Source: an uncultured bacterium
GTDB lineage: Bacteria; Fidelibacterota; Marinisomatia; Marinisomatales; UBA1611
Reading direction: 5' to 3'
DNA: 64,000 nt
Assembly: GCA_943788175.1 (NCBI GenBank)
Contig: CALSPG010000010.1
Coordinates: forward strand, 1-64,000
Shown: piece after piece, positions 33,833 to 53,110 of the stretch
How positions within the stretch are numbered: the first letter of the stretch is position 1
Layout of the letters: every line of letters starts with the position of its first letter
The notes under the pieces: model-generated
Database searches by the model: none
The model's input: the letters and a program-made list of their open reading frames with translations, nothing else
Told to the model about the DNA's origin: nothing
Made by a program: the position numbers and the translations under genes

Positions 33833-33862
33833 TATTAGAATGAAGTGACTTAGCTTAATTAC

Positions 33863-35206
33863 TTAACCGCAAATTTTCAAACTAACTACTTTTGCCAAAT
33901 TCATAAGCGAATTAATTCCTGCTTTTTCTATCGAATTAAAATCTGAACCACTTTCTTCAAAGATCTTTTGGTTGAAAAATTCTTCATTTGAATTACTATC
34001 CCGAATGGTTAAGTGACCAGATGCATGAACAAAATTTGGATAAATTTTACTTATTTTATCGGCATTTTCTTGTGTTATGACATCAAGTTCTATCGCAATA
34101 CTCGATTCTTTTTTATTTCTCGTAAAACTCGCAGAATATTTCTTTTCAAAACACTTTTTAATTGCATCAACTACAGGTAAATCTTTTAAACTATTATCGA
34201 AATTATTAAAGCTGTTTTCAAAAAACATATTTGGTGATTTTGGTATTACAGATAATTTGCACTTCTTTGGGCTTAACTTAAAAAGTTTGACTAAATCATC
34301 ATTCAGCAAAACATTAAATGCTACGTTGAATTGAAGCTTATAGCCATTTGTAATTTGGTCTAATGATCTAACTTGGTATTCCATTGAACCATTTTCTTTT
34401 GATATCAATAAATCAGATTCATCAAAGCTCTCAGATCTGGCTTCAATCCATAATCCAGATAACATTTTTCCAGATAATAAATCTTTTGATATTAAAATAA
34501 CTCTTCTGCTTTCATTTACTAATGGCATTTTTTGTAGATAATCTGATTTGTATGCCAACTGAATTCGGTCATTATAAGTATGAGTTATTTTTTTTAATTG
34601 TAGAATTAATTGAACTACATCTTTATCAATATTATTACTACTAATTAATGATCCGTAACCAATATAATTAATTATAAGACCTAAGGATTTTGAAATTCTT
34701 TTAAAGTTTTTTTCAGAAATATCGTCGCTAATATTATTAATAATTTGTTGAGCAAGGTGCAAGGTATCAGACAAATCATTTTCAAAAGCTTTTATAAATG
34801 ATTTTTTATCGAATTTTAACAAAGCATACAAATGATTTTTATCAATGAACTTCTCTGGTTTGGTAAAATATTTTGAGGCTCTTAAAATTCTTTTTTCAAT
34901 AATAACATCCACGTACATACTAAAGTCTAAATTAGTAGAATCAGCAATGTTTTTCAGATGATTTAAAAAGTCATCTTCTATCATTTTTTCCATTTGGTTA
35001 TAGACTAAATCATTCAAGATTGAAGCTTCTTTTTTTTCAACTTTATAGACACTGTAAACATATGCACTATCATGTTGATGGTTTTCTACCCATGCAGGCT
35101 TTATTACTTTTGGGGGCTTCTGTATTATAGGGGCAGGCTTAGATGAGCAACTGACAATAAATATTAATAGAACAAATGAAAAAATATGAATGATAAATCT
35201 CATCAT
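33863..35206 (-). CDS. Hypothetical lipoprotein (LPP20-like N-terminus)
   Basis: Lipobox IVSC, PAWV motif and YALLKFDK segment. Confidence 0.6.
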   Translation of the reverse strand: MMRFIIHIFSFVLLIFIVSCSSKPAPIIQKPPKVIKPAWVENHQHDSAYVYSVYKVEKKEASILNDLVYNQMEKMIEDDFLNHLKNIADSTNLDFSMYVDVIIEKRILRASKYFTKPEKFIDKNHLYALLKFDKKSFIKAFENDLSDTLHLAQQIINNISDDISEKNFKRISKSLGLIINYIGYGSLISSNNIDKDVVQLILQLKKITHTYNDRIQLAYKSDYLQKMPLVNESRRVILISKDLLSGKMLSGLWIEARSESFDESDLLISKENGSMEYQVRSLDQITNGYKLQFNVAFNVLLNDDLVKLFKLSPKKCKLSVIPKSPNMFFENSFNNFDNSLKDLPVVDAIKKCFEKKYSASFTRNKKESSIAIELDVITQENADKISKIYPNFVHASGHLTIRDSNSNEEFFNQKIFEESGSDFNSIEKAGINSLMNLAKVVSLKICG

Positions 35207-35715
35207 AATGATTTGATATGATTTATCAAATCAAGAATCCCCATTTCGGAAAAATCTGTTTTGAAACTTATTTTAGCATTCCCTTTATTTAGAACAACTA
35301 TATAAGGCATGCTATTTATATTAAAAATTCTTGCTGCGATTTTATACTCATCAATTAAAATTGGTACCGTCCAAACATACTTCTGAACCATTGATAACAA
35401 ATCTAAATCGTTATCATAATCACTTATTAAAAAGTATTCAATCTTTGAATTTTGAATACTAGCTCTAATATTCTGTATCTCTGAAATTATTTTTTGAGAT
35501 TTAAAATTTTCATGTCTGATAAACAGAAGGACTAAGTTTTTTTGAATAATTTTATTTTTAAAATGTACATGTTTAGCTGTTCCAAGTTTTTTTAACGATA
35601 TTGTTTTAATACTTTCAGTTAAATATTCGTATTCTGGTAAGGTGATTGCAAAAGAAAAGCTGAAAAAACTAGCAATCAAAGTAATTGCTAGATAAAAATA
35701 TTTATATGTAATCAT
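35203..35715 (-). CDS. Exported thioredoxin-fold (TlpA/AhpC-like) protein lacking CxxC
   Basis: Signal peptide; VLLF..., PILID...IARIFNINSMPYIVVLNKG pattern without cysteines. Confidence 0.5.
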   Translation of the reverse strand: MITYKYFYLAITLIASFFSFSFAITLPEYEYLTESIKTISLKKLGTAKHVHFKNKIIQKNLVLLFIRHENFKSQKIISEIQNIRASIQNSKIEYFLISDYDNDLDLLSMVQKYVWTVPILIDEYKIAARIFNINSMPYIVVLNKGNAKISFKTDFSEMGILDLINHIKSL

Positions 35716-36664
35716 AGTTTGCAAGTATTTCCCTAAAAGCATTGAATTGTTCATAAGTCATGTCAAACTCATATAAATACTTACCTTTAAAATATACTCT
35801 TATTCTATTTGCATCAAAAAAACTTAATATTAAATCTGTATCAACCGAATCGTCAGATTTTTCTTGATTAGCAAACCTTGACTCAACTAATTCTTTATTT
35901 GATTTATTTACATCTATAATTATTCTCTTATTATTATCAGCTAATAATTCTATCTTGTTATAATTCATCCATTGCGGCTCGTGATAGTCTGAACCACTTT
36001 TGTCAATATAAGTTGATTTCATTCTAAACTCACGATCCCCATCTTTATTTACAATCATATATAATTCAATTCCAAAAGATACAGTATGAGCAACCTGACA
36101 TAAAGTTGAACGTAAAGTTCGAAAATATGTTTCTCCAGTCTTTCTATCATAAATAGATTCTACATTAGTCTTTATTGAATCAACCATTTGCGACGCTCTT
36201 TGCTGTTTGCGCTCATTTATTTTTTTTAATCTTAACTGCTCTTTTTCAATCTTCAATTTTTTCTTATTTGCTAAATTATATTTATTTTCAACTTTTTGCC
36301 GATCCCAATCTGGGTATTCCTCTGATAAAAGGATCAAAAGGTTCATACATTCATCAAATTGGCCAGAATCAAAATAACTATGTGCTTGAGAATAAAGTGC
36401 GCCAGGCAATTGGGAGATGCTATCCATTTTAGTTCGCATAATTGACAACTCTTTTTCGAGTATTTTAATTTTTTCTAATTTGCTCTTTAGATTCTTGTTT
36501 TCGCTTTTAACATTTATTATTACAGCTTCTAAATCATCCACTTCTTCTTGAAGATAACTTACTTGACTTTTTAAGTCATCTTTTTGGCAGGCAGCAAAAA
36601 AAAACAAAACTATTGTGACTGAAAAGGCCCAAAAAAGATTTATAGTTTTAATGTGTTTTTTCAT
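35702..36664 (-). CDS. Hypothetical lipoprotein with coiled coil and a TPR-like helix pair
   Basis: Lipobox FAAC, heptad-rich segment, then LYSQAHSYFDSGQFDECM...EEYP. Confidence 0.6.
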   Translation of the reverse strand: MKKHIKTINLFWAFSVTIVLFFFAACQKDDLKSQVSYLQEEVDDLEAVIINVKSENKNLKSKLEKIKILEKELSIMRTKMDSISQLPGALYSQAHSYFDSGQFDECMNLLILLSEEYPDWDRQKVENKYNLANKKKLKIEKEQLRLKKINERKQQRASQMVDSIKTNVESIYDRKTGETYFRTLRSTLCQVAHTVSFGIELYMIVNKDGDREFRMKSTYIDKSGSDYHEPQWMNYNKIELLADNNKRIIIDVNKSNKELVESRFANQEKSDDSVDTDLILSFFDANRIRVYFKGKYLYEFDMTYEQFNAFREILANYDYI

Positions 36665-36670
36665 AAATAA

Positions 36671-37621
36671 TTATTTAAAGTCAAAACCCATTCCGACATA
36701 AAGAGAACCCCAATATGCATTACCACCATTATTAAAATTTATAGTATTAAATCTGCTCGACATTGAAATAGAGCACGGTAAAGAACCTAAAAATAAATTT
36801 AAATTATAGCCAGCTACTAACCCTGAGCCATGGTCGTAATTTTGAGACCCTAAAACCAATTCTTTTACAAGATTTTCTCCACCTATTTTAATTATTTTTG
36901 ATATATTTAGATTAACAACCATACCACTTCCAATTCCGAAATAACTATCTAAAGTGTCAACTGAAGACGCAAAGGAATAGTTACTTGTTTCGTAACCAAC
37001 ATTTGTTAAAAAAGGGCCTATTTTTACACCAAAGGGGAACCGAATATTAAAAGATTTTTCAAAATATGACACTGAATTTGAAAGTGTAGAACCTCTTATT
37101 AATGCCTTACCGAAGTTTCCTCCAATTCTTAATCCGGAGAGGAGGCTTTTCATCGATTTTGAATCTTTAATCTTTTGAATTTTGTTTTCACTATTAATTT
37201 TATTGAGGTTGTTTTTTTTATTAGAAAGACCATCTGCAGTCTGAATTATTTTAGGCATTTTGACTTGGTTACTAGCTTTAACAGAATCACTTTGTTTCAT
37301 TGATGTGTTTTTATCAGTTACGATATCTTCGACTATGACAAATATTGATAATAAAGTATCAATATTGTTATCTATATAAGTTTCAAAACCTGCTTCTCTC
37401 CCACCCCAATCAAAACCATCTTTTAACTGTTCATCTTTGATGCCGAGAGAGTCTAACTTTTTAACTAAAATGTTATAAGCAACATTATCAAACTCATCAG
37501 TTATTTTTAAACCGATTTTTTGTTTTAGGTTGTCAATTTTTTTGGTTTTGGGTTTTTCAAGACCTTCACAGAAAATAACAGAATAGAAAAATAAAATAAA
37601 AGCGAAATATTTACAGGTCAT
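36671..37621 (-). CDS. Hypothetical exported protein with a probable C-terminal beta-barrel
   Basis: Signal peptide; alternating-residue strands ending YVGMGFDFK. Confidence 0.5.
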   Translation of the reverse strand: MTCKYFAFILFFYSVIFCEGLEKPKTKKIDNLKQKIGLKITDEFDNVAYNILVKKLDSLGIKDEQLKDGFDWGGREAGFETYIDNNIDTLLSIFVIVEDIVTDKNTSMKQSDSVKASNQVKMPKIIQTADGLSNKKNNLNKINSENKIQKIKDSKSMKSLLSGLRIGGNFGKALIRGSTLSNSVSYFEKSFNIRFPFGVKIGPFLTNVGYETSNYSFASSVDTLDSYFGIGSGMVVNLNISKIIKIGGENLVKELVLGSQNYDHGSGLVAGYNLNLFLGSLPCSISMSSRFNTINFNNGGNAYWGSLYVGMGFDFK

Positions 37622-39182
37622 CGTCATTAAAAAACTGTGATAGTACTTTTTTGGGAGGTGGGTCAGTGAAAAGGCTTACAAATATCAATGCAAAAACAGA
37701 CAATCCGGCTGCTGGGTATGTTAGTTCTTGTAAAAAAGGATGAAGGTTTTTAAAACCGCTCCAATTTGGTAACAAATATGTCCATATAATTGTAATACTA
37801 GAACCCGTTAAAATAGAAATGGCAGCACCTTCTTTTGTGGCTCTTTTCCAAAGAAAAGCAGCTAATAATGCAGGGGTGAGAGAAGCACCGTATATATTGT
37901 AAGCCGTAAACGCAGCGTTAAGAACTGTTTTAAATTGACTTACTAAAAGAAACGCTATCAGACCTAAAAATAGAACGAGCATACGACTAATGAAGATAAC
38001 TTTTTTCTCAGTTGCATTTTTATTAATATATTTTTGATAGACATCTCTTGTCAAGTTTGTAGCTGGAATTAATAAAAACGAATCAGCTGTAGAAACAATA
38101 ATTGCCATCATCGTGGAAACTAAGATTAAACCAATTATTAGTGGCAAACCTCCATGTATTGCTATAGCGGGAATGACTGATTCACTTCCAGACTGCCTAG
38201 CTGAGAGCAATTCATCTTCGGATGGAGATAATCCTAATATTTCAGCATTTCGAACGACTATTCCTTGTTCGTTTTGAACAATATCAGGCATGATACCCTG
38301 CTCAGCTGCAACACTTCCTGTTAGTCCAAGAAAAGAGATACTCGATTCTAGAATCACAACACCAACAACCCAGAAAAAGACTGCTTTTTTTGCAGAACCG
38401 CCATCCTTTGCACTAAAAATTCTTTGATACATATTTGCATCACCCATTAGAAGAAGCATTGTGGGAACAAAAAAACTAAGGGCAATTATAGGGCCAGAAA
38501 TATCTCCAGTGCGTTCGGCTGACCAATTGCCAAACAGGCTCCACTTACCTGCCTGATCAGCAATTTGTATCATTTCCTCAATGCCACCAATATTTATCAA
38601 CATAAACATTAGTGCAGCTAGAACACCGATCGTAATCAAAACTCCATTTACAACATCAGTGTAGACAACTGAAAACATACCTGCCAGGACAGTGTAAGAA
38701 ATTGCAAATACCGCTGTAATAATAATCCCAATCTCTAGCGATATCATACCATTTGAAACCATTTCTAAGACCTTACCACCGCCTCTAAATTGATACGATA
38801 CAATAGTCGTATAAGCGATAACCGTAATAATTGTCGCTAATAATGCAGCAAATCGTCCATAGCGAATCTCAAAAATATCAGGAACAGTTATTTTGCCAAA
38901 GTTTCTGATTCTTTTAGCTATGAAGTAAATGAGTGTTATACCTAACCATGCACCAGCACTTGACCAAAGAGCAGCTGGCCCGTTACGGTAACCTAATCCA
39001 GCACCACTAAACAACGATCCACTTCCCATCCACGTTGCAAGTAAAGTGCCTACTAGGATATACCAAGGTAAAACTCTTCCAGCGACCATAAAATCTTCGC
39101 TATTTTTTACCATTTTGGTTTTATAAATACCAACACCGACTAGAGCAAAAAGATAGATAGCAATAGAGACAGTATATATCAT
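37611..39182 (-). CDS. Sodium:solute symporter (SSS family)
   Basis: DFMVAGR, ATWMGSG, GMFSVVYTD, YQRIFSAKD and STADS; many transmembrane helices. Confidence 0.92.
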   Translation of the reverse strand: MIYTVSIAIYLFALVGVGIYKTKMVKNSEDFMVAGRVLPWYILVGTLLATWMGSGSLFSGAGLGYRNGPAALWSSAGAWLGITLIYFIAKRIRNFGKITVPDIFEIRYGRFAALLATIITVIAYTTIVSYQFRGGGKVLEMVSNGMISLEIGIIITAVFAISYTVLAGMFSVVYTDVVNGVLITIGVLAALMFMLINIGGIEEMIQIADQAGKWSLFGNWSAERTGDISGPIIALSFFVPTMLLLMGDANMYQRIFSAKDGGSAKKAVFFWVVGVVILESSISFLGLTGSVAAEQGIMPDIVQNEQGIVVRNAEILGLSPSEDELLSARQSGSESVIPAIAIHGGLPLIIGLILVSTMMAIIVSTADSFLLIPATNLTRDVYQKYINKNATEKKVIFISRMLVLFLGLIAFLLVSQFKTVLNAAFTAYNIYGASLTPALLAAFLWKRATKEGAAISILTGSSITIIWTYLLPNWSGFKNLHPFLQELTYPAAGLSVFALIFVSLFTDPPPKKVLSQFFNDDDL

Positions 39183-41500: not shown

Positions 41501-42793
41501 ATGAAAAATCTAGCATTACATTGGAAAATCATCATAGGATTAGTTTTAGGGCTAATATATGGAATAATAAGCGCATCTAATGGTTGGGGTACATTTACCA
41601 CCAATTGGATTGCTCCTTTTGGCACAATATTTATTAATTTGCTAAAACTCATAGCAGTTCCATTAGTATTTGCTTCCTTAGTATTAGGTGTAGCCTCACT
41701 ATCAGATACTAAAAAACTATCAAGGATAGGTGGAAAAACAATTTTAATATATTTATCTACTACATTGATATCTGTTATAATTGGACTTTTTCTAGTGAAT
41801 TCTTTAAAGCCTGGGAACCAGATTCCAGAACAGATGAAAATTGAACTCCAAGATACTTATAAAAAAAACCTGGAGTCAAAAACTGATAATGCTGAAAAAG
41901 TGAAAAAAAGAGGTCCTTTAAAACCGCTTGTTGACATGGTCCCAAATAATATTGTTTTTTCAGCATCAAATAATAGAAATATGCTACAGATTGTTTTTGT
42001 AGCAATTCTAGTAGGCATCGGACTTATTCAAATACCAAAGAATAAATCAAAAGAGTTTTTAGGTTTTTTTGAGGGTCTAAACGAAGTAGTTCTTAAAGTA
42101 ATTGATATAATTATGCTTATGGCACCTTTAGGAGTTTTTGCACTTATTTCCCAAACAATTAATAAGGTAGTTGGCGATAACATCAGCCAGGTAATAGAAC
42201 TCATCAGTGCATTAGGATTCTATATGTTCACGTTAACATTAGGTCTCTTTTTACATGTTATTATTACTTATCTATCGCTGTTAAAAATTTATTCTAGAAT
42301 GCCCATAGAAAAATTTTTTAAAGGCATAGCACCTGCTCAATTATTAGCATTTTCTACAAGCTCTAGTGGAGCCACATTGCCAATAACCATGGAAAGATGC
42401 GAAGAGGAGCTCGGCGTATCTGAGGAGGTATCATCTTTTGTCTTGCCTCTTGGCGCAACCATAAACATGGATGGAACAGCACAGTATCAAGCTGTAGCAG
42501 CAGTATTTATTTCTCAGGCACTAGGTATGGATTTATCATTAACGGATCAAGTCACGATTGTTTTGACAACAGTTTTAGCCTCAATTGGTACAGCAGCGGT
42601 ACCAGCAGCAGGTATTATTATGTTAATTATTATACTAGAATCAGTAGGAGTTCCAAGTGCTGGTGTTGCTCTTATTCTAGGCGTAGATAGAATTTTAGAC
42701 ATGATTAGAACTACCGTAAATGTAACTGGAGATGCAGCTGTTGCGGTTTCAGTAGCAAGTAGCGAAAAGCAATTAAAATCATATAGTAAATAA
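41501..42793 (+). CDS. Dicarboxylate/amino acid:cation symporter (GltP/DctA family)
   Basis: AFSTSSSGATLP, LPLGATINMDG and DRILDMIRTTVNVTGD. Confidence 0.95.
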   Translation: MKNLALHWKIIIGLVLGLIYGIISASNGWGTFTTNWIAPFGTIFINLLKLIAVPLVFASLVLGVASLSDTKKLSRIGGKTILIYLSTTLISVIIGLFLVNSLKPGNQIPEQMKIELQDTYKKNLESKTDNAEKVKKRGPLKPLVDMVPNNIVFSASNNRNMLQIVFVAILVGIGLIQIPKNKSKEFLGFFEGLNEVVLKVIDIIMLMAPLGVFALISQTINKVVGDNISQVIELISALGFYMFTLTLGLFLHVIITYLSLLKIYSRMPIEKFFKGIAPAQLLAFSTSSSGATLPITMERCEEELGVSEEVSSFVLPLGATINMDGTAQYQAVAAVFISQALGMDLSLTDQVTIVLTTVLASIGTAAVPAAGIIMLIIILESVGVPSAGVALILGVDRILDMIRTTVNVTGDAAVAVSVASSEKQLKSYSK

Positions 42794-42844
42794 TGTTTTT
42801 TATAAAGCATAAAGGGAATAATTTCCATGATAATTAAAAAAATA

Positions 42845-43019
42845 ATTTGGGCGGGTTCTGTTAATTCCGGATCGACAATTATATAATTAGGAGGCTGTAC
42901 TTCGTTTTCAAAAAACAGGCCTTTCCAAATTTTAATTTGGATCAAGGAAGTTTGCTAAAAGCGGGAGGCCACCACCGTTCTTTAAACTAAGAAGGGTCCT
43001 GAAAACTGCCTGCCCATAT
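42845..43019 (+). ncRNA. ssrS: Probable 6S RNA
   Basis: ~170 nt GC-enriched rod. Closing stem UGGGCGGG (42848-55)/CCUGCCCA (43009-16); GGAUC/GGUCC and GGAGGC/GCCACC helices flank an A/U-rich central bubble; apical hairpin UCCAAAUU/AAUUUGGA. Motif order GAUCGACA...GGAGGC...GGCCACCACC...GGGUCC resembles known 6S RNAs. Confidence 0.7.
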
Positions 43020-43029
43020 TTCTAAAAAT

Positions 43030-44193
43030 ATGAATAATAATAATAATAATAATAAAAGAAATAGAATTCCGAGAGGCTATCTTCCTGAAGATTCTGATAG
43101 ACGTCTAGATTGGCTCAAGAATGAACATGATTTTGAATTAAAAAACCTGCCACCTAATGAAACTGAAGAGTTAAAAGGTATTATAGAAAACCATGTCGGT
43201 TTTATGCAAATGCCAATGGCAATTGCTGGACCAGCAATCATTGATGGTAAATATGCTAAAGGTGAGTTTGCAATACCTTTATGTACAATTGAAGGTAGTT
43301 TAGCGGCATCAATGAATCGCGGTCTTTATGCATCCTCTTTATGCGGTGGAATGAAGGTAAAACACTTTCGTCAAGAGCTTTCAAGATCACCAATTTTTAT
43401 TTTTGATGATTTAAAAAAGAGTGATAAATTTCAAAACTGGGTAAATGAGCACTTAGATAAAATCAAAAAAGCAGCGCAATCTACCACACAATACGGTAAA
43501 GTGATTCGAATTGATCAATATGCAATTCAAAATTATGTTTTATTAGATTTTATTCTTGATACTGGGAATGCTGCCGGGCAAAACATGGTAACTCTAGCCA
43601 CAAATGTTGCTTGTGAATATATTAGACAAGAAACGGGACATAAATTTTTTCTTGATTCAAATTTAGCCAGCGATAAAAAAGCATCTTCTAGGAACATGAT
43701 ACTCGGCAGAGGTCACGGTGTTATTGCAGAAACGCACATAACAAAATCCGTTATGTCTAGGGTCCTTAATGTTGATCCCGATTTTGTTATAGAAAATTGG
43801 ACTTACTTTCCTATTGTATCAGCGATGGCGGGAACCCTTGGAAATGCCATCCATGCTTCAAACGCTCTGACAGCAATTTACATTGCAACGGGTCAAGATA
43901 CTGCCTGCGTTGCAGAAAACTCTGTTGGACATTTTACAGTGGAAAAAGTTGACGACGGTATTACTTGGAGATTAACCTTACCATCAATGACTGTTGGCAC
44001 AGTTGGTGGCGGAACTAGATTAAATCAACAACAACAAAACTTACAACTTTTAGGCTGCGACAGTAGTGAGCATTCATCTAGAAAGCTTGCTGAAATCATA
44101 GCTGCAGCTGCTTTAGGTCTAGAAATTTCATTAGGATCAGCAATCATGTCCCATACATGGACAAGTGCGCATATGAAATACGGTAGAAAATAA
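43030..44193 (+). CDS. Class I-like HMG-CoA reductase homologue
   Basis: ENHVG, PLCTIEGSLAASMNRG, LSRSP, TGNAAGQNM, SDKK, ATGQD, GTVGGGT and C-terminal SAHMKYGR. Confidence 0.9.
   Translation: MNNNNNNNKRNRIPRGYLPEDSDRRLDWLKNEHDFELKNLPPNETEELKGIIENHVGFMQMPMAIAGPAIIDGKYAKGEFAIPLCTIEGSLAASMNRGLYASSLCGGMKVKHFRQELSRSPIFIFDDLKKSDKFQNWVNEHLDKIKKAAQSTTQYGKVIRIDQYAIQNYVLLDFILDTGNAAGQNMVTLATNVACEYIRQETGHKFFLDSNLASDKKASSRNMILGRGHGVIAETHITKSVMSRVLNVDPDFVIENWTYFPIVSAMAGTLGNAIHASNALTAIYIATGQDTACVAENSVGHFTVEKVDDGITWRLTLPSMTVGTVGGGTRLNQQQQNLQLLGCDSSEHSSRKLAEIIAAAALGLEISLGSAIMSHTWTSAHMKYGRK
43033..43053 (+). repeat. (AAT)7 trinucleotide repeat encoding an N-terminal poly-Asn
   Basis: atg followed by aat x7. 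Confidence 0.9.
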
Positions 44194-44204
44194 AAAACAC
44201 TACT

Positions 44205-44930
44205 ATGAATGTACTTGATAACCCCAAGTATTCTCATTTATTAAAACGCCAGCCTTTTTATCATCGTATTGGTAAGACATTGCTATATAACTGGGCCAAG
44301 TTTATTTTTTTTTGGTACACACCACTGAGTGTTTTTGGCAAAGAGAATATTCCCAATGATTCTTTTATTTTTTGCAGCAATCATAATGCTCATTTGGATG
44401 TCATTGCATTATCTCTTTCAGCAAATAAAAACTTTAATAATGTTGGAATGCTTGCAGCTAAAGACTATTGGTTCGATAACTGGCTTCGAAGAAACATAAT
44501 GAAACCGGTAATGAACCTCATTCCTCTTGGTCGAAAATCACACCTTGGAAAAGATATAACCTTTGAGCAAACTCTAGAATTATCAAATTGTTTTATGAAT
44601 GTTGATAAGCGTTGTATTATTATATTTCCTGAGGGAACTAGAGGTCAACCAGATGTATTAAAACGATTTCGAAAAGGTCCAGCACGATTATCAATAGGAA
44701 CAGGAAAACCAATCCTTCCTGCCGTTGTCATGGGTTCAGGAAAATCTTGGCCAAAAGGAAAATTTATTTTTAAACCTGGTAAAATTCATGTTTACATTCT
44801 AAAGCCTATAGACCCTAATTCATTCACTATAAGAGACAAAAATAATGAAAAAGACCTTTTCAAAACTGCAGAGGCCATGACAAAAGAATTAGAAGAAAAA
44901 ATTACGAGTAAATTGGAAGAATTAACATGA
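44205..44930 (+). CDS. PlsC-family (lyso)phospholipid / putative DHAP acyltransferase
   Basis: NHNAHLD (HX4D), AAKDYWF and FPEGTRG. Confidence 0.9.
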   Translation: MNVLDNPKYSHLLKRQPFYHRIGKTLLYNWAKFIFFWYTPLSVFGKENIPNDSFIFCSNHNAHLDVIALSLSANKNFNNVGMLAAKDYWFDNWLRRNIMKPVMNLIPLGRKSHLGKDITFEQTLELSNCFMNVDKRCIIIFPEGTRGQPDVLKRFRKGPARLSIGTGKPILPAVVMGSGKSWPKGKFIFKPGKIHVYILKPIDPNSFTIRDKNNEKDLFKTAEAMTKELEEKITSKLEELT

Positions 44931-46699
44931 GTAGTAGTAAAAAAGAAAAGTTTTATGGAGTAAACGATGAACTCTGGGGCCATAAATGGGGTTTTAAAGA
45001 TTCATCTTTTATAATAAATGATGACAATTCTATCACATTTACTGGCGCAAGGTATGATGGAATATCTGGAGAAAAATTGCCTTATCTAATCCCTTTTGTT
45101 ACCAAAGTTTTAGATACAGAGATAAATAAGGAACCTTACTTTAAAGAAGTTAAAAAAAAGTTTGTTTCTGAACGGATATTAAACAGAGCGTTTATTGATG
45201 CAATTGAATCTTCTTTTGCAGAAGATAAACTTTCATTAAGTGATGATGAGAGAATTCTTCACAGCCATGGCCAAAATTCTCCAGATGAAGTTTTCAAAGT
45301 ATTGTATGACAAACTTGATAAGTTCACGGATCTTATTATTTATGTTGAAACTGAGGAAGACGTTGTTTTATTAATAGACCTCGCAAAAAAACATAATGTG
45401 TGTCTTGTCCCATTTGGTGGCGGAACTAATGTCACAAATGCACTCCAGTTACCAAAGAATGAAACTAGAATGATAGTTACTGTTGACACAAGGAGATTAA
45501 ATAGAATTATTTCTATAGATCAAAAAAATCTTCTAGTTGAAGTAGAGGCTGGTATTACAGGTAAAGAATTAGAAAAGCAACTTCAAGATAAAGGGTATAC
45601 TACTGGCCACCAACCAGATAGTATTGAGCTATCTACTGTAGGTGGCTGGATATCTACTAATGCCGCAGGTATGAAAAAAAACCGATATGGAAATATTGAA
45701 GATATTGTTCAAAACCTAGTTATGGTCACTCCAAATGGGATAATAAATCAAATTGAGCCACTGGTGAGGTCCTCAATTGGTATAAAAACACAAAACATTC
45801 TTTTCGGTTCTGAAGGCAATCTAGGTATAATAACAAAAGCCACAATGAAAATTCATAGATTACCAGAATGTAGTGACTATGAATCGGTTGTCATGAAGGA
45901 TTGGAATACTGGACTGGATTTTATGTACGAGCTCGCTCACTCAAATACAATACCTGCTAGTGCAAGAATGCTTGATAGTTTACACTATCAATTTGGAAGC
46001 GCATTAAAACCAGAAAAAACAAATTTCGGAAAATTCAAAAGTAAAATTCAAAAGTTAGCATTTAAAATTAAAAATTTCGATGCAGATCATTTTGTTGCAG
46101 CAGTCTTCAAACTAGAAGGAACATTTTCCGAAGTAGAATACCAAAGAAAAAATATAAAAAATCTTGCAAGAAAGTATAATGGATTGCTTGGTGGTCGCAA
46201 GGAAGGAAAAGTTGGTTACAACATAACAATGGTTATAGCATACATACGCGAATTTTTTGTACCACAGGGGATTCTTGGCGAAACTTTAGAAACAGCAGTC
46301 CCATGGTCAAAAGTAAATCAAGTAAAAGACGAAGCAAATAAACTACTAACAAAATTGCACAAAGAATATAATCTTCCAGGAAAACCATTTTTTTGTTCAA
46401 GAGTTTCAAAAATTTATCACACTGGGGTTTGTATGTATAATACAATGGGAATTAATGTTAGAGGAGTTAAAAACCCTGAAAAAGTTTTTAGTGATATTGA
46501 GCATAAAATTAGAGCTTGTTTTATTAAAAATGGCGGTTCAATCTCGCATCATCACGGAGTAGGAAAATTGAGGAAAGAGTTTATGCCCGAGACCATTTCA
46601 ATTGGTAGTATTCAGGTGATACAGAATATTAAAAAATCACAAGACCCAGATAACATATTTGGAATTGATAACAATATTGTAAACAAGATTCAGGATTAA
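44927..46699 (+). CDS. Alkyl-dihydroxyacetonephosphate synthase (AGPS/ADS) homologue, FAD-linked
   Basis: PFGGGTNV, GHQPDSIELSTVGGWISTNAAGMKKNRYGNIED, GSEGNLGIIT, PASARMLD, ETAVPW, GVCMY, GGSISHHHGVGKLR and DPDNIFG match the eukaryotic AGPS motif set. Confidence 0.9.
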   Translation: MSSSKKEKFYGVNDELWGHKWGFKDSSFIINDDNSITFTGARYDGISGEKLPYLIPFVTKVLDTEINKEPYFKEVKKKFVSERILNRAFIDAIESSFAEDKLSLSDDERILHSHGQNSPDEVFKVLYDKLDKFTDLIIYVETEEDVVLLIDLAKKHNVCLVPFGGGTNVTNALQLPKNETRMIVTVDTRRLNRIISIDQKNLLVEVEAGITGKELEKQLQDKGYTTGHQPDSIELSTVGGWISTNAAGMKKNRYGNIEDIVQNLVMVTPNGIINQIEPLVRSSIGIKTQNILFGSEGNLGIITKATMKIHRLPECSDYESVVMKDWNTGLDFMYELAHSNTIPASARMLDSLHYQFGSALKPEKTNFGKFKSKIQKLAFKIKNFDADHFVAAVFKLEGTFSEVEYQRKNIKNLARKYNGLLGGRKEGKVGYNITMVIAYIREFFVPQGILGETLETAVPWSKVNQVKDEANKLLTKLHKEYNLPGKPFFCSRVSKIYHTGVCMYNTMGINVRGVKNPEKVFSDIEHKIRACFIKNGGSISHHHGVGKLRKEFMPETISIGSIQVIQNIKKSQDPDNIFGIDNNIVNKIQD

Positions 46700-46702
46700 T
46701 CT

Positions 46703-47503
46703 TTGGACCTTGTTAATAAAGTATGCGTAATAACTGGAGCGTCTTCCGGTATTGGAAAATCTTTAGCAACAAAACTTTCCCTAAGAGGTGCTAAAGTTGT
46801 TTTAGCCGCAAGAAGAAACTCTAAACTTGAAGAAATAAGACAAGGCATTGAAAAAGAAGGCGGTAAATGCTTTGGTGTGAAAACAGATATTACTAAAAAA
46901 TTAGAATGTAAGAATCTCATTGATGAGACAATTAATCGATATAAAAAAATAGATATATTAATTCTAGCTGCTGGTGTAAGTATGTGGTCCCCATTTGAAG
47001 AAATATCTGATATTTCTTTTTTTGATGACCTTATGGCCACTAATTATACTGGTGCAGTCCATTGCGTTCATGCAGCCTTACCTAGCCTTATATCAACAAA
47101 TGGTATGATTGTTTCCTGCTCAACTGCACAAGCGATTGTAGGATTTACAAACCATTCTGGTTATGCTGCCTCAAAACATGCTTTGCACGGTTTTTTAGAT
47201 ACTTTAGAAATGGAACTTAATGGTAAAGTAAAATTTTTAGAAACTTGTTTGGGTTGGATTAAAGGAACAAATATGCGATCTAATGCATTTGGTCCTAATG
47301 GTAAAAAAATGGGCGAAACAAAAAGAAAACACAGTAGTAATTCTGTTGATCTAGATGTTTGTATTGAAAAAATAATTTCTGCTATAGTAATTGAAAAAGA
47401 GAAAGTTTACATTCCTTGGAAGCTGAAATTGATTCCATTTCTTGATTTATTTTTTGGAAAATTTCTAAGAAACAAAATAAATAGAGCAGTACACTCTGAA
47501 TAA
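46703..47503 (+). CDS. Classical SDR oxidoreductase (NADP-type), putative acyl/alkyl-DHAP reductase
   Basis: TGASSGIG, AARR, TNYTG and YAASK; 3 nt after the AGPS stop. Confidence 0.85.
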   Translation: MDLVNKVCVITGASSGIGKSLATKLSLRGAKVVLAARRNSKLEEIRQGIEKEGGKCFGVKTDITKKLECKNLIDETINRYKKIDILILAAGVSMWSPFEEISDISFFDDLMATNYTGAVHCVHAALPSLISTNGMIVSCSTAQAIVGFTNHSGYAASKHALHGFLDTLEMELNGKVKFLETCLGWIKGTNMRSNAFGPNGKKMGETKRKHSSNSVDLDVCIEKIISAIVIEKEKVYIPWKLKLIPFLDLFFGKFLRNKINRAVHSE

Positions 47504-47526
47504 TGTACTAAGCTTTGCTTTTTTAA

Positions 47527-48672
47527 TTACTTTACCATTTTTAAATATTTAGATATAATTCTCAACATTATTTCGTCTGTACCACCACCTATTGAGTGGA
47601 GTCGTCCATCTCGGTATAGTTTTGCTGCTTGATTTTCCCAAGTGAATCCCATTCCACCATAGTACTGAATACACGTATCAGCAACCTCTCGAATTAATCT
47701 ACCACTCTTTAATTTTGCCATTGATGCCAATAAAGTAACATCCTCGCCTCTGATGTAATTTTCACACGCCCTATATATCAAAGACCTTAAAGCTTCTACT
47801 TCTGTTTTTAACTCAGATAAGCGAAATTGAATTGCTTGATTATCAATTATATTTTTTCCAAATGCTTTTCTTTCGCTACAATATTCTATTGTGTAATCTA
47901 TACAATTATCCATTGAAACAAGTATGCTTGCTGCTAGAAAGAGCCTTTCTTCTTGAAACTGCTCCATTTGCATCTTGAAACCATCCCCTTCAATTCCAAT
48001 TCTATATTTTTGAGGAACACATACATTATCAAAATAGACTGGTGCTGTATCTGAAGATCTAAAACCTAGTTTGTCAATTTTATCACCAATACTTACTCCT
48101 TTTGTATTTGACGGTATTATAATTAAGGACTTATTTATATGAGGTTTATCATCACTTGTATTAACTAGCGTACAAAAATAGTCAGCTTGAGTTGCATTTG
48201 TTATCCACATTTTTTGACCATTAATTATGTAATCCTTTCCTCTTTTAATAGCATTAGTTTTTAGCGATGATACATCTGAACCACCACCAACTTCACTTAT
48301 AGCAACAGAAGTAACTTTTTCACCTTTAATTGCAGGAACTAAAAACTCCTTTTTTAATTCTTCAGAACCATACCGCTCAAGGGCTGGTGTTGCCATATCA
48401 GTTTGCACACCTATTGCTGTAACTACACCACAATCGTCAGCGTGTCCTAAGGCCTCAGCAAATATTAGACCATAACTATAATCTAAACCCATGCCGCCAA
48501 AATCTTCACTCTTGGTTATACCAAGCAAATCCAGTTTACCCATTTTTTTAAACAAATCATGAGCAGGAAAAAAACCATTTTGTTCCCATTCATCGGCAAA
48601 AGGTTTGATCTCTTTTTTTACAAATTCTTTTACCGTATTAAACAATGCTTTTTTTTCTTCATTCAAATACAT
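47527..48672 (-). CDS. Acyl-CoA dehydrogenase, citronellyl-CoA dehydrogenase (AtuD)-like
   Basis: GVQTDMATPAL, SEVGGGSDV, INGQKMWITN, QFQEER and SIGGGTDEIM; in an atuA-atuC context. Confidence 0.88.
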   Translation of the reverse strand: MYLNEEKKALFNTVKEFVKKEIKPFADEWEQNGFFPAHDLFKKMGKLDLLGITKSEDFGGMGLDYSYGLIFAEALGHADDCGVVTAIGVQTDMATPALERYGSEELKKEFLVPAIKGEKVTSVAISEVGGGSDVSSLKTNAIKRGKDYIINGQKMWITNATQADYFCTLVNTSDDKPHINKSLIIIPSNTKGVSIGDKIDKLGFRSSDTAPVYFDNVCVPQKYRIGIEGDGFKMQMEQFQEERLFLAASILVSMDNCIDYTIEYCSERKAFGKNIIDNQAIQFRLSELKTEVEALRSLIYRACENYIRGEDVTLLASMAKLKSGRLIREVADTCIQYYGGMGFTWENQAAKLYRDGRLHSIGGGTDEIMLRIISKYLKMVK

Positions 48673-48697
48673 TTATTATCCTTTATTGTGATATAAA

Positions 48698-49498
48698 TTA
48701 TTTTTTAATTGTCCACGATGGTTTACGTTTATTAAAAAAAGAGTCAAATCCTTCTCTTCCATCATTACTAATAATACTATCAGAAAATAAATCAGCTGCT
48801 CTCCGGGAATCAATATTTTGGTTTAAGGACAATATTTTTTTAGTAGTCGCTATTGCAGCAGGCGAGCAGTTGATGACATCAGATTTAAAATCGTTTATTT
48901 TTTTTTCAAGTGCCTCATTATTATTTGCAACAAAATCAACCAATCCAATTTTACTTGCCTCCAACCCATCAATTATAGTTCCCAAAAGCATCATTTTTCT
49001 CGCTTTTGAATAGCCTAATTTATTTATTACATATTTTGAAATTTGTGATGGCGTTAGACCTATTTTAGTTTCAGTGAGACCAAATTTTGTATTTTCCAAA
49101 GATATAACAAAATCTGAAGCACACGCGATCCCAAAACCGCCAGCAAGTGCAAACCCCTCCGTAACCGAAACGACAATTTGAGGCGCTTGATTTATCACTT
49201 TAAGTAATTTCCCAATGGTCATACTAAAATCATATGCTTGATTTTTAGCTTCTTTTCCTGATTCAGTTATTTTTTTCATTTTTTTTAAATCTGCTCCAGC
49301 ACAAAATACACCACCATCACCCCTTAAAAAAATTGCACGAATATCTTTATTATCCTTTGCAACGTCAAAGACAATTAATAGTTCTTCGACTAAACTTTCT
49401 TTAAGGGAATTCCTGTTTACCGCATTATTAAACAGTATTTCTAGCCAACCATTTTTATTATTTAATATAAGATCTTGTGTTTTTGGAAATTGATTCAT
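48698..49498 (-). CDS. Enoyl-CoA hydratase, isohexenylglutaconyl/methylglutaconyl-CoA hydratase (AtuE/LiuC)-like
   Basis: FCAGADL, ALAGGFGIACASD, FGLTETKIGLTP and EGFDSFFNKRKPSW. Confidence 0.85.
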   Translation of the reverse strand: MNQFPKTQDLILNNKNGWLEILFNNAVNRNSLKESLVEELLIVFDVAKDNKDIRAIFLRGDGGVFCAGADLKKMKKITESGKEAKNQAYDFSMTIGKLLKVINQAPQIVVSVTEGFALAGGFGIACASDFVISLENTKFGLTETKIGLTPSQISKYVINKLGYSKARKMMLLGTIIDGLEASKIGLVDFVANNNEALEKKINDFKSDVINCSPAAIATTKKILSLNQNIDSRRAADLFSDSIISNDGREGFDSFFNKRKPSWTIKK

Positions 49499-49535
49499 TC
49501 TGTATCCATAATTTAAAAAAGTCTGCCTTAAGTAA

Positions 49536-51158
49536 TTATAACCTAGCGATACCAAAACTATTAGATTTGGTAGTGCGGTTTAACGTTTCCCAAAATGTAT
49601 CTAATAAAAAACCGAGGATTTCTCTTGTTTTGACTGGTTCAATAATACCATAGTCTAATCCTCTACCAGAAGTGGTAAAAGCATCAGATTGAGCATTATA
49701 TTTTTCAGCAATTTTAATTATTTGGTTTTTCAATTTTTCATTATCTATCTCTACACCTTTTCTTTTAGCAGAACTAATCATAACCTGCTCCATGGTTTTT
49801 GCAGCTTGTTCTCCTCCCATTACACCAATCATTGCATTAGGCCACGAAAATATAAAATCAGGCTTATAAGCATACCCACACATAGCATAATTTCCTGCTC
49901 CAAAACTAGCACCTATATTAAAAGTTATTTTAGGAACTCTTACATTTGATACCGCTTGAATTAACTTTGCTCCATGTTTAATCATACCAAGTTGCTCAGA
50001 TTGTTTTCCAACCATAAACCCAGTTGTATTACTTAAAAATATTAATGGGATATTTGACTGATCACATAATTGAATGAATTGAGCTGCTTTTGTAGCACCG
50101 TTTGGGTCAATGGGGCCATTATTACCTATTACCCCACAGGGATGACCATAAATTTTTGTTTGGATACAGACAGTGGAAACACCATAGAGAGGCTTAAAAT
50201 CAATAAAATCAGAACCGTCAACAAGCCTTGCCACAACCTCTCGAACATCGTAAGGGATTTTGTAATCAGCAGAGACAACCCCAATTAATTCATTCACATC
50301 ATAAATTGGATTATCAAACGAGATGTTTTCACGACTCTTTAAACTAGAATTCCAATCAATTTTATCAATTACTTCTCGTGTGATTTTTATGGCATGTTCA
50401 TCATCTTCAGCAAGATATTCTACTAAACCTGTAATTCTTGCATGCATTTCGCTGCCACCTAACTCATCTTTATCTGCGATCTGTCCAGTCGCTGCTTTTA
50501 GCAATGCTGGTCCAGCTAATGCAGCCATTCCATTTTTTTTTACACCTACTACGTAGTCACTCATACCAGGTTGATATGCACCACCTGCCGTAGACAGACC
50601 ATGCAATATTGCAATTGTAGGAATTCCTGCAGCACTAAGTTTTGCAAGTCCATAAAACATACCTCCAGTATTAGACCAAAATTCAACTGTATAGTTCATT
50701 AAATTAATTCCAGCACTTTCAACAAGGTGAATAAATGGTAATTTTTGTTTTAAGGATATTTCTAAGCAACCTAATGCTTTATCAATCGATTTTGCGGTCA
50801 AGGCGCCCGCATTTATTCCACTATCATCAACAAAGACCATACTTCGGACACCACTTATAAATCCAATGCCAGCAATTACACTAGCTCCGGAGATGCTAGT
50901 ATCTTCATTATTATCATCTACTAAATAACTAATCATATTAAATAATTCTATAAAAGACGTATTAGGATCTAATAATGCTGAAAGTCTTTCTCTAGGAGTA
51001 AGCTGCCCTCTTTCAATAAATTTTTCTCTTCGTCTTTCTGACACCTTTTCAGCTCGTCCTTTTATAGAATTCATTTTTTTAATTAACGAACCAAACTGAT
51101 TTTTATTATTTATAAAATTCTCGGATTCAGAATCTATTTTAGTTTTAAATATTGTCAT
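49536..51158 (-). CDS. Acyl-CoA carboxylase carboxyltransferase subunit, geranyl-CoA carboxylase (AtuC)-like
   Basis: LTPRER..LLDP, LVESAG, STAGGAYQPGMSDY, NTTGFMVG and GASFGAGNYAMCG. Confidence 0.9.
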   Translation of the reverse strand: MTIFKTKIDSESENFINNKNQFGSLIKKMNSIKGRAEKVSERRREKFIERGQLTPRERLSALLDPNTSFIELFNMISYLVDDNNEDTSISGASVIAGIGFISGVRSMVFVDDSGINAGALTAKSIDKALGCLEISLKQKLPFIHLVESAGINLMNYTVEFWSNTGGMFYGLAKLSAAGIPTIAILHGLSTAGGAYQPGMSDYVVGVKKNGMAALAGPALLKAATGQIADKDELGGSEMHARITGLVEYLAEDDEHAIKITREVIDKIDWNSSLKSRENISFDNPIYDVNELIGVVSADYKIPYDVREVVARLVDGSDFIDFKPLYGVSTVCIQTKIYGHPCGVIGNNGPIDPNGATKAAQFIQLCDQSNIPLIFLSNTTGFMVGKQSEQLGMIKHGAKLIQAVSNVRVPKITFNIGASFGAGNYAMCGYAYKPDFIFSWPNAMIGVMGGEQAAKTMEQVMISSAKRKGVEIDNEKLKNQIIKIAEKYNAQSDAFTTSGRGLDYGIIEPVKTREILGFLLDTFWETLNRTTKSNSFGIARL

Positions 51159-51179
51159 TCACTTTACCTATTTTATCGA

Positions 51180-52970
51180 TCAAAAATTATCTTTTGTTAT
51201 TTTTTTATAAATTAATTCTGGAATCGCAATCTTTGCATTTAAAATGTATTGAGCATAAGCCTTTCCCTGGGGGTCAAGAAGTAAGCTCGACATTCCACCA
51301 CCTCCTAGACTATTTTTTACTAAAAAGTTCAATCCATTTATTTTTGGTAGCTCCCAGCAAACAACAGATTTTTCAGTACAATTTTTAAAAAAAGAAGATA
51401 TTTTTTCCGTAGTCAAAGTTTTTTTTATATATGAAAAATATTCAGGCTCTCTAGAAATAATACCAACGTTTACATGATTACCTTTATCCCCACTTCTAGC
51501 ATATGCCAAATTTATTAAACGAGTTTCAAAACTATAATCGCTAGTATTACCACCTAACTTCGCAGGCGTTGTATTTGAAGAGATATTTAATTTATCAGAA
51601 TTTTCAATTTCAACGGATTCTACGGTATTATTAAAATCAATCTGGCATTTAACTTTCTTTTTATCTAACATAAAAGAAAATAAATTAATTGACGGAGAAA
51701 TTGATGGCCTTCCACCTAAATAGTTCATTATACCCGGAGCCATCCCAGTAGCCGCTTGAGCTATTTCCCTAGATAATATAATAAGAGCTTCTTTTTCTTC
51801 ATGCCTTGCAGCAACTCTTAATACCACTTCATTGCTACCTTTGAAATTACTATGATCATTGATATTTTCAGATCCTATTACAGAAACATTAATATCTTTA
51901 TATGCAGAAAAATTTTGTTCAATAAAAATATCTTTAGTTCTTTTTAAAATGGAATTACCAACAGAGTATGCTTTTTTTACGGCTTTCGGACCACCTATAA
52001 CTAAAGTTGCAACAGTTTTAAATCCGTCTTGGTATGTTGCAGACACTTTATAGAAGTTTGAAGGCCTGTTGCCTTTCACTCCTTTTACCGAAACGACATC
52101 ATTACCCTTATCTTTAATGGAGACATTTGTGAAATCACATATCACATCGGGAAGGAGGTAACTACTCGGATTTCCAATTTCGTACAAAAACTGTTCTGCA
52201 ACTGTTCCAAAATTGACAATTCCTCCAGTATTTTTAGGCTTTGTAACAATAAAGTTACCATTTTTTTCTACTTCTATAATTGGAAACCCAATATTATCAA
52301 ACCTTTCTACAGATTCCCAATCAGTAAAGTTTCCACCAGTGCATTGAGCTCCACACTCAATAATGTGCCCTGCTAGACTACCACTAGCAAGGAGGTCATA
52401 GTCATCAGTCTTCCAATCAAATTCATACATTAAAGGACCAAGTACTAAAGCACTATCAACGCATCTGCCAGTAATTACTATATCAGCATCAAGCTCTAAG
52501 GCTGCCTTTATTCCTGGAGCACCTAGATACGCATTCACGCTTAATAAGTTTTCTGGAAGGGACTCATTTGTATCAATTTCTTTGATATTACTTGAGCGTA
52601 AATCTTTTTCAAGATGTAAAAGATCATCACCTTCAAGTATTATAATTTTTAAATCAACAGCTTCTTTTTTTGCTTCTTCAAGCAATGCTTTTCTACACGC
52701 TTCAAGATTCACTCCACCAGCATTACTTATAATTTTGATGTTCTTTTCTTTAATTTTTTTTATTAAAGGACCAACGTGGTTTATAAAATCTTTAGCATAA
52801 CCATGACTATTATTTTTTAATTTTGCACCTGCCAAAATTGACATTGAAACCTCTGCTAAGTAGTCAAAAACTAAATAATTAATGTTGCCCTTATTTACTA
52901 ATTGAGGGGCAGCAATATCGGTGTCACCCCAAAACCCTGATGCACAACCTATTTTAACCTTTTTTTTCAA
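51180..52970 (-). CDS. atuA: Acyclic terpene utilisation AtuA family protein
   Basis: IGCASGFWGD, FDYLAEV, SNAGGVN, NAYLG, VITGRCVD, GHIIECGAQCTGGNF, ARSGDKGN and DPQGK. Confidence 0.92.
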   Translation of the reverse strand: MKKKVKIGCASGFWGDTDIAAPQLVNKGNINYLVFDYLAEVSMSILAGAKLKNNSHGYAKDFINHVGPLIKKIKEKNIKIISNAGGVNLEACRKALLEEAKKEAVDLKIIILEGDDLLHLEKDLRSSNIKEIDTNESLPENLLSVNAYLGAPGIKAALELDADIVITGRCVDSALVLGPLMYEFDWKTDDYDLLASGSLAGHIIECGAQCTGGNFTDWESVERFDNIGFPIIEVEKNGNFIVTKPKNTGGIVNFGTVAEQFLYEIGNPSSYLLPDVICDFTNVSIKDKGNDVVSVKGVKGNRPSNFYKVSATYQDGFKTVATLVIGGPKAVKKAYSVGNSILKRTKDIFIEQNFSAYKDINVSVIGSENINDHSNFKGSNEVVLRVAARHEEKEALIILSREIAQAATGMAPGIMNYLGGRPSISPSINLFSFMLDKKKVKCQIDFNNTVESVEIENSDKLNISSNTTPAKLGGNTSDYSFETRLINLAYARSGDKGNHVNVGIISREPEYFSYIKKTLTTEKISSFFKNCTEKSVVCWELPKINGLNFLVKNSLGGGGMSSLLLDPQGKAYAQYILNAKIAIPELIYKKITKDNF

Positions 52971-53110
52971 ATACTATAACCTTTCAAACATTGATTCATT
53001 AATTATACAAAAAAAATAAGCACTCAAACATGATAAAATGGAATTCGTTAAATATCTGTAATTATCTATCATTTAAATATATTTTCAGTATAAATAAACT
53101 AATAAAATAT

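Follow-up and report, generated by a model that had tools for sequence, protein, structure and literature searches.

A predicted FcrA-type acyl-CoA reductase at the head of a putative four-gene ether-lipid operon in an uncultured bacterium of the Marinisomatia

We analysed a 64,000-nt stretch of DNA (hereafter the window; contig CALSPG010000010.1, positions 1 to 64,000) from an uncultured bacterium of the Marinisomatia lineage UBA1611, and focus here on the plus-strand gene at 43030-44193, the 387-aa product of which is homologous to class-I 3-hydroxy-3-methylglutaryl-CoA (HMG-CoA) reductases (HMGR). The first-pass annotation of this DNA had proposed that the HMGR homologue acts as an acyl-CoA-to-alcohol reductase feeding the alkyl-dihydroxyacetone-phosphate (alkyl-DHAP) synthase AGPS. 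This proposal gains support from signature residues, from the score against the NCBIfam model TIGR00533, from mevalonate genes that are absent and methylerythritol phosphate (MEP) genes that are present, from the AGPS operon, from a genome (G196) with a fatty acyl-CoA reductase (FAR) in the same slot, and from phylogeny. We conclude, with a probability of roughly 0.8 and on the strength of sequence data, that the gene probably encodes an FcrA-type long-chain acyl-CoA-to-alcohol reductase heading a four-gene ether-lipid operon.

In the model that we favour, the FcrA-type enzyme would use NADPH and Glu/Lys/Asp/His chemistry for a four-electron reduction that turns long-chain fatty acyl-CoA into a fatty alcohol, while the acyltransferase encoded next to it would provide 1-acyl-DHAP. 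AGPS would then swap the acyl group for the fatty alcohol to give 1-O-alkyl-DHAP, and the keto group of the latter would be reduced by a short-chain dehydrogenase/reductase (SDR) to 1-O-alkyl-glycerol-3-phosphate, ready to enter ordinary phospholipid synthesis. Together the four products could make up a complete peroxisome-style route to 1-O-alkyl glycerolipids, a scheme in which we infer the substrates of the FcrA-type enzyme, the acyltransferase and the SDR, as well as the lipid product.

An HMGR homologue with FcrA signature residues

Residues 23-386 of the translated open reading frame (ORF) align to positions 3-368 of the 368-position PF00368 profile (352.8 bits, E 2.8e-105). The solved chains that match the protein best, archaeal 6hr7 (245.5 bits), plant 8ecg (165.2 bits) and human 1dq8 (147.5 bits), are all class-I HMGRs, and class-II HMGRs reach about 36 bits only. 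Residue equivalences, given in human numbering, come from aligning the protein by HMMER with the chains of human HMGR (1dq8/2q1l) and archaeal 6hr7 (Methanothermococcus thermolithotrophicus). The catalytic Glu, Lys, Asp and His recognised in the first-pass annotation are kept in these alignments, with E559 corresponding to E88 (TIEG), K691 to K216 (DKK), D767 to D290 (GQD) and H866 to H381 (AHM), and the fold, this tetrad, the GTVGGGT motif and the C-terminal His helix are all shared with canonical class-I HMGR (6hr7, 1dq8). Unlike those enzymes, however, the protein has changes at S684, K735, L862 and in the DAMGMN motif, falls below the TIGR00533 cut-off, and has no mevalonate pathway alongside.

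The DAMGMN motif reads NAAGQN (residues 179-185), as had been noted by eye, versus a D-A-A-G-Q-N consensus in the AGPS-linked relatives described below. The K735-bearing human segment NINKNLVGSAMAG corresponds to NWTYFPIVSAMAG in the window protein, where the human-chain alignment places Y259 opposite K735 and both the 6hr7 chain and a MAFFT alignment place F260 there. Lys stands at neither position, so the earlier observation that the HMG-carboxylate-binding Lys is missing is upheld under either alignment. Three further changes that had not been remarked upon concern S684 (D209), L862 (W377) and R590 (Q154). As judged from these alignments, the HMG-binding signature is lost, with S684, K735, L862 and DAMGMN all replaced.

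These replacements can be read against FcrA, a large monophyletic group of class-I HMGR homologues reported to be fatty acyl-CoA reductases (Grossi et al., ISME J 2025; PMC11948995). According to that paper, purified Pb-FcrA from Ca. Promineifilum breve uses NADPH to reduce acyl-CoA of at least C14 to the alcohol, leaves HMG-CoA unreduced and is unaffected by simvastatin; the FcrA of Natronomonas pharaonis was modelled, and 59 FcrA pockets were modelled in the study, a long hydrophobic substrate pocket in the oligomer model being one of the family's traits (PMC11948995). The same source gives three positions that separate FcrA from HMGR, namely an acidic residue for S684, loss of the conserved HMG-binding Lys, and a bulky residue for L862, which is Trp in N. 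pharaonis (PMC11948995). All three are found in the 387-aa protein, as D209, Y259 (with F260) and W377. The HMG-binding Lys is printed as Lys795 in the FcrA paper, and we take it to be K735 in human numbering. The window protein thus resembles FcrA in its PF00368 fold, Glu/Lys/Asp/His set, acidic residue at 684, lack of the K735 Lys, bulky aromatic residue at 862, mevalonate-free genome and placement on the non-canonical side of the tree.

The FcrA-type residues are conserved among close homologues, of which we aligned 120 at 64-98% identity, taken from 120 listed matches. Position 209 (S684) is Asp or Glu in every one of them, position 377 (L862) is Trp in 118 and Phe in two, and at position 259 (K735) 106 have Tyr and 14 have Phe. 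There is no variation at N180, A182 or Q184, and of the catalytic set K216, D290 and H381 are present in 120/120 and E88 in 118/120. The R590 position varies more widely (Lys 84, Asn 19, Gln 16, Arg 1). Scored against TIGR00533, the HMGR equivalog model, the window protein reaches 285.9 bits, which is 156 bits short of the 441.8-bit cut-off; six representatives with the canonical residue pattern range over 433-510 bits, and four of these pass the cut-off; six FcrA-type proteins, two with an N-terminal PF25653 domain, score 285-365 bits.

A wider sample was drawn from a library of 1.84 billion cluster representatives, in which 2800 matches were found at E<=0.001; the best 150 of these were taken, and 146 were long enough for a tree. 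Among these 146, an acidic residue at 684 combines with an aromatic one at 862 in 104, a basic residue or Gln at 684 with an aromatic 862 in 24, and other patterns at the two positions occur in 11. The canonical pattern (Met in DAMGMN, S684, L862) is found in the remaining seven, five of which have Lys in the K735 column. The first-pass annotation had cautioned that this Lys may be missing from other bacterial class-I homologues too, and the caution holds. In the FastTree phylogeny the seven canonical-pattern proteins form one clade, split from all others, including the window protein, by a branch of local support 100, a split that recurs with support 100 in the IQ-TREE phylogeny described below, and the window protein lies on the same side as the PF25653-bearing proteins. 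Several members of the clade to which the window protein belongs also carry fused AMP-binding and PP-binding (phosphopantetheine) domains, which fits fatty acyl substrates.

One further feature of the gene is an (AAT)7 repeat at 43033-43053, translated as an Asn run at the protein N-terminus. Near-identical homologues carry N5, N6 or N7, and the repeat length thus varies between populations. Positions 43021-43069 were skipped as repeat when contigs from RNA libraries were aligned to the operon.

A conserved operon with an exchangeable reductase

The operon and its upstream region comprise the following features.

43030..44193, plus strand: fcrA-like gene, 387 aa, ATG start; class-I HMGR homologue, predicted NADPH-dependent fatty acyl-CoA reductase (alcohol-forming)
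44205..44930, plus strand: PlsC-like acyltransferase, 241 aa; PF01553 at 63.5 bits; predicted DHAP (or 1-alkyl-glycerol-3-phosphate) acyltransferase, the acceptor being presumed
44927..46699, plus strand: alkyl-DHAP synthase (AGPS), 590 aa; PF01565 and PF02913
46703..47503, plus strand: classical SDR, 266 aa; PF00106 at 156.3 bits; predicted 1-alkyl/acyl-DHAP reductase
42794..43029, no strand: intergenic region upstream of the operon, 236 nt; promoter presumed

The four genes are tightly packed, with an 11-nt gap between the fcrA-like gene and the acyltransferase gene, a 4-nt overlap between the latter and AGPS, and a 3-nt gap before the SDR gene, after which the next gene is convergent. The acyltransferase translation contains an HX4D motif (NHNAHLD) together with FPEGTR, and its closest solved chain is Thermotoga maritima PlsC (5kym, 63.4 bits). 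AGPS matches the guinea-pig enzyme 4bby at 428.6 bits over residues 19-582 and Dictyostelium 2uuu at 268.6 bits, and retains both the SHHHGVG loop and the Tyr whose replacement distinguishes the Y578F chain 4bca; by homology, it is a bona fide alkyl-DHAP synthase. The SDR scores 238.3 bits against NF004825 (cut-off 215) and contains TGASSGIG (TGxxxGxG) and YAASK (YxxxK), and a search of PDB gave generic 3-hydroxybutyrate-dehydrogenase-like matches only, at no more than 83.5 bits. Its presumed substrate is suggested by operon logic only. A scan for sigma-70 consensus sites found 22 versus a shuffled mean of 20.1, i.e. no excess, and promoter and terminator scans of 42700-47700 likewise showed no excess over shuffled sequence.

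The gene order is conserved in the phylum. Among 201 sampled genomes, 24 have a homologue at E<=1e-20, at least 50% identical in 23 of them, and 25 have an AGPS orthologue at least 47% identical. Of the 23 genomes whose orthologue is at least 50% identical, 22 have AGPS 725-868 nt downstream of it, on one contig and in the same orientation; in the remaining genome (G167), the acyltransferase gene is cut off by the contig end and AGPS stands at the start of another contig. A scan of named genomes with the single protein gave six close Marinimicrobia loci. When fetched stretches were compared by BLAST, the full order FcrA-acyltransferase-AGPS-SDR was found in six of six relatives with room for it, hence 7/7 with the window.

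Two genomes of the sample, G188 and G196, have an AGPS orthologue without FcrA. The contig of G188 starts 650 nt before AGPS. In G196 (locus L037, G196:C11, 3871-8994, minus strand), a 563-aa canonical FAR (PF07993 at 219 bits, and PF03015) occupies the slot before the acyltransferase, AGPS and SDR genes, and the arrangement is, by gene content and order, a natural non-orthologous swap of FAR for FcrA. As far as gene context goes, nothing argues more strongly for the HMGR-like gene as the source of the alcohol than two unrelated reductases occupying one slot of an otherwise conserved operon.

Looking further than the phylum, we aligned the six nearest representatives and scanned metagenome contigs with the alignment, keeping 80 loci. 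Two motifs served to retrieve these loci, and since one of them prescribes the A[AS]GQNM columns, those columns carry no evidential weight. A phylogeny of the AGPS-linked HMGR homologues, proposed as a check in the first-pass annotation, was obtained by quick IQ-TREE and groups the window protein and 28 loci in one clade with SH-aLRT support of 100 and a stem of length 0.94. This single subclade holds all 19 loci that have at least 1700 nt downstream and an adjoining AGPS, and none of the 31 that have the same room and no AGPS; in four more members the start of AGPS is visible before the contig ends. An acyltransferase gene comes next in every clade member whose contig extends at least 700 nt past the gene (24/24), and the diagnostic residues hold throughout, with an acidic residue at 684 in 28/28 and Phe or Trp at 862 in all 27 that reach this position. 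In the half of the clade that stands further from the window protein (46-50% identical), AGPS is of a different lineage: that of locus L042 (6879-8672) matches Dictyostelium 2uuu at 474.4 bits and guinea-pig 4bby at 300.3 bits. Judged by these matches, the FcrA-headed operon occurs with two AGPS lineages, one closer to the mammalian enzyme (the window) and one closer to that of Dictyostelium (the sister group).

Parts of the stretch are also present in 20 public sequencing runs, 14 of which are recorded as RNA. We aligned contigs from four metatranscriptome libraries (X1-X4, two studies) to the operon, most pieces being at least 99% identical and the cover from X2-X4 having gaps. RNA-library contigs bridge the junction between the fcrA-like and acyltransferase genes in X1, X2 and X4, that between acyltransferase and AGPS in the same three, and that between AGPS and SDR in X1 and X3. 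The operon is thus present in RNA libraries, which is no proof of a single transcript.

Downstream of the operon and convergent with it lies a minus-strand cluster (47527-55431) of genes for an acyl-CoA dehydrogenase, an enoyl-CoA hydratase, a carboxyltransferase, AtuA, a 3-hydroxyacyl-CoA dehydrogenase and a zinc-dependent alcohol dehydrogenase, which looks like leucine or acyclic-terpene catabolism (Atu/Liu-like). Among the fetched loci, the three that are at least 83% identical and extend beyond the SDR gene have such genes next to the operon, as do 0/13 loci of at most 65%. A functional tie between operon and cluster was rejected, the adjacency being confined to close relatives.

Isoprenoid genes and competing assignments

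The window belongs to a metagenome-assembled genome (MAG) of 2.27 Mb on 12 contigs, 92.2% complete, in which PF00368 has one match, making the gene the sole HMGR homologue. No further mevalonate gene came up when all 55 window ORFs of 90 aa or more were scanned against Pfam, in line with what the first reading of the window had reported. The proposed genome-wide check for mevalonate and MEP genes and for a second HMGR extends this result: neither HMG-CoA synthase (HMGS) nor diphosphomevalonate decarboxylase (MDD) was found in the 92.2%-complete genome, and mevalonate kinase (MVK) and phosphomevalonate kinase (PMK) were not found among its only two GHMP kinases. The first of these kinases is IspE (209.2 bits, cut-off 138.7), and the second is matched about equally by galactokinase and mevalonate-kinase models, below every cut-off. 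As an MVK candidate (C5:245957-246895; 107.4 bits, cut-off 163.05) the latter was rejected; because of its galactokinase signature and its place between GH109 and nucleotidyltransferase genes, we take it to be a sugar kinase. DXR (475.9 bits) and IspH, split over two frames (G000:C6:229926-230745), are present and indicate the MEP route. Bacteria whose sole homologue is of the FcrA type are described in the FcrA paper as being without a mevalonate pathway (PMC11948995).

Other split genes in the MAG are those for S-adenosylhomocysteine hydrolase, over three ORFs (window 2881-4188), and RsmB, over two (60085-61421), and with the two-frame IspH they suggest a frameshift-prone assembly or real pseudogenes, which calls for caution on gene absences. 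No NAD_binding_4-type FAR was found in the genome by a PF07993 search with five weak matches. A hidden FAR was considered for these matches, the best two of which proved to be an HpnA-like epimerase and a dTDP-glucose 4,6-dehydratase.

These results bear directly on whether the gene could encode a true HMGR, which would form mevalonate, for isoprenoids or isoprenoid ether lipids, from HMG-CoA produced by the neighbouring leucine or acyclic-terpene catabolism. The PF00368 fold and intact tetrad, the label of close homologues at JGI (HMG-CoA reductase (NADPH)) and an adjoining cluster that could make HMG-CoA are all compatible with such an enzyme, yet the residues equivalent to S684, K735 and L862 are each replaced, as is the DAMGMN motif, the score lies 156 bits under a cut-off around which canonical proteins score 433-510 bits, no HMGS, MVK, PMK or MDD was found alongside the MEP genes, the assayed family member does not reduce HMG-CoA in the published account (PMC11948995), and the gene travels with AGPS, not with Liu-like genes. 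We therefore regard a true HMGR as extremely improbable. The alternative raised in the first-pass annotation, mevalonate synthesis leading to hybrid isoprenoid ether lipids, gains no support, on the same grounds, with no HMGS, MVK, PMK or MDD found and the HMG-binding residues lost. A different lipid product, such as wax esters, free fatty alcohols or the product of an AGPS-like enzyme acting on another acceptor, with no membrane ether phospholipid formed, would accord with the discovery of FcrA in the context of wax-ester synthesis (PMC11948995) and with acyltransferase and SDR substrates that are predictions. It is nevertheless very unlikely in our view, given that AGPS keeps the catalytic Tyr and HHH loop of solved alkyl-DHAP synthases, that the set of four predicted activities coincides exactly with the known alkyl-DHAP pathway, and that no wax ester synthase/diacylglycerol acyltransferase (WS/DGAT) was found in the genome, the last being a weak negative whose search control matched in one control genome only, below the cut-off.

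A less drastic departure from the model would keep an FcrA-like reductase feeding AGPS and change what it handles, the substrate being an iso-branched or isoprenoid acyl-CoA or an acyl-ACP, or the product an aldehyde, with unusual or hybrid ether lipids as the outcome. The pocket residues Tyr259/Phe260, where the FcrA paper gives mostly small residues (PMC11948995), speak for such a variant, as do the missing N-terminal acyl-carrier-like domain of Pb-FcrA and the immediate downstream neighbours, which encode acyl-CoA dehydrogenase, enoyl-CoA hydratase, carboxyltransferase and AtuA. The Atu/Liu-like neighbours are, however, convergent and confined to the three loci of at least 83% identity (0/13 at or below 65%), a canonical long-chain FAR fills the same slot in G196, and AGPS requires an alcohol, not an aldehyde. 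We consider these variants unlikely, though less so than the two preceding readings.

Several observations nonetheless weigh against an FcrA-type long-chain reductase that feeds ether-lipid synthesis. The assayed FcrA lies outside the AGPS-linked subclade, where function is assigned by inference only, and placement in the FcrA clade is anchored indirectly, through signature residues and PF25653-bearing proteins, the trees containing no named FcrA. Unlike Pb-FcrA, the 387-aa protein has no N-terminal PF25653/Lad domain, and it is only about 41-43% identical to two Lad-bearing proteins (P0130 and the G136 gene), so that substrate range and chain length are extrapolated. The D-to-N change in DAMGMN (NAAGQN) may affect cofactor binding. 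One member of the AGPS-linked clade, L055 (1-1644), has a 61%-identical fcrA-like gene with no acyltransferase in its last 619 nt, and the Atu/Liu-like cluster directly downstream of the operon could in principle yield HMG-CoA. RNA-library contigs may include DNA carry-over; the long contigs of X1 run into the convergent neighbour gene, and no silent stretch served as a control. With a MAG that is 92% complete and has frameshifted genes, absences are not proof. This applies to WS/DGAT, and to PEDS1/CarF, which was not found in the genome in a search whose control matched nowhere, again a weak negative; on this footing, alkyl lipids would be expected, not plasmalogens.

Two observations belong beside these points. 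At the acyltransferase place L055, the sole exception in the clade, has a 113-aa ORF without family match. Locus L038 (G136:C243, 101-1642, minus strand) encodes a 513-aa FcrA-type protein, 41% identical to the window protein, with an N-terminal PF25653 domain and hence the architecture of assayed Pb-FcrA; no AGPS was found in this genome, which is 65% complete.

Relation to known systems and further features of the window

The FcrA family and its proposed link to AGPS are already published (PMC11948995). Some FcrA were suggested there as a source of alcohol for AGPS ether lipids (PMC11948995), and the examples given are loose ones, with AGPS nine genes off in Ca. Promineifilum and a PlsC-like gene adjoining fcrA in Coxiella (PMC11948995). 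To this the present locus adds an operon of four closely packed genes, conserved within a marine phylum of high abundance, as well as an FcrA subclade dedicated to AGPS linkage and a natural FAR-for-FcrA swap. Unlike FcrA as published, this subclade is tied to acyltransferase-AGPS-SDR operons and not to WS/DGAT. On balance we think it probable that it represents a distinct ether-lipid (not wax-ester) FcrA subfamily, encoded by the first gene of a self-contained operon that is interchangeable with a FAR-headed form and occurs with two AGPS lineages. A full-text literature search, with the supplements of the FcrA paper outside its scope, found no paper on an FcrA-acyltransferase-AGPS-SDR operon or tying SAR406 to FcrA, and none reporting lipids of this lineage.

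The predicted pathway parallels the AGPS-dependent peroxisomal one (FAR1, GNPAT, AGPS and acyl/alkyl-DHAP reductase) and that of Myxococcus xanthus MXAN_1676-1674, in that all four activities are predicted and AGPS is orthologous. Unlike those systems, the window has four separate genes in one tight bacterial operon and a reductase derived from HMGR. With FAR/FarA (PF07993 and PF03015; eukaryotic FAR1 and the FAR-GNPAT fusion MXAN_1675 of M. xanthus, as described in PMC13012113), the protein would share reaction and pathway role; with an HMGR fold where they have an extended SDR fold, it is a non-orthologous replacement and no homologue. An AGPS operon of myxobacteria that includes the FAR-GNPAT fusion was reported together with a bacterial survey that used FAR queries (PMC13012113). 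Surveys of ether-lipid capacity of this kind would be expected to miss FcrA-based systems. Agps homologues have been reported, without the reductase, in 49 of 134 Black Sea Marinisomatota MAGs (PMC11868695).

If the model is right, the operon predicts ether-linked membrane lipids in widespread uncultured deep-ocean bacteria, made by the route of peroxisomes and myxobacteria with the alcohol coming from an enzyme co-opted out of isoprenoid metabolism. If there is indeed a distinct ether-lipid subfamily, the dark ocean's abundant and uncultured SAR406/Marinimicrobia would be a major unrecognised source of non-isoprenoid 1-O-alkylglycerols in sea water and sediments. For lipid biogeochemistry, the operon would point to a candidate producer of marine alkylglycerols and provide a marker gene for them. 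On this assignment the database name HMG-CoA reductase misleads, since it suggests mevalonate metabolism in organisms whose isoprenoids come from the MEP route. The four genes would also offer a compact cassette for testing and engineering bacterial ether-lipid synthesis.

Elsewhere in the window, five consecutive minus-strand ORFs (32504-37627; 442, 447, 183, 320 and 318 aa) have no Pfam match and sit in its lowest-GC part (0.27-0.28 at 32001-36000). A 952-aa protein encoded at 19360-22218 on the minus strand combines a carboxypeptidase-regulatory-like domain with a C-terminal type IX sorting domain (Por_Secre_tail/CHU_C), a predicted architecture that indicates a cargo of the type IX secretion system (T9SS) in a SAR406 genome.

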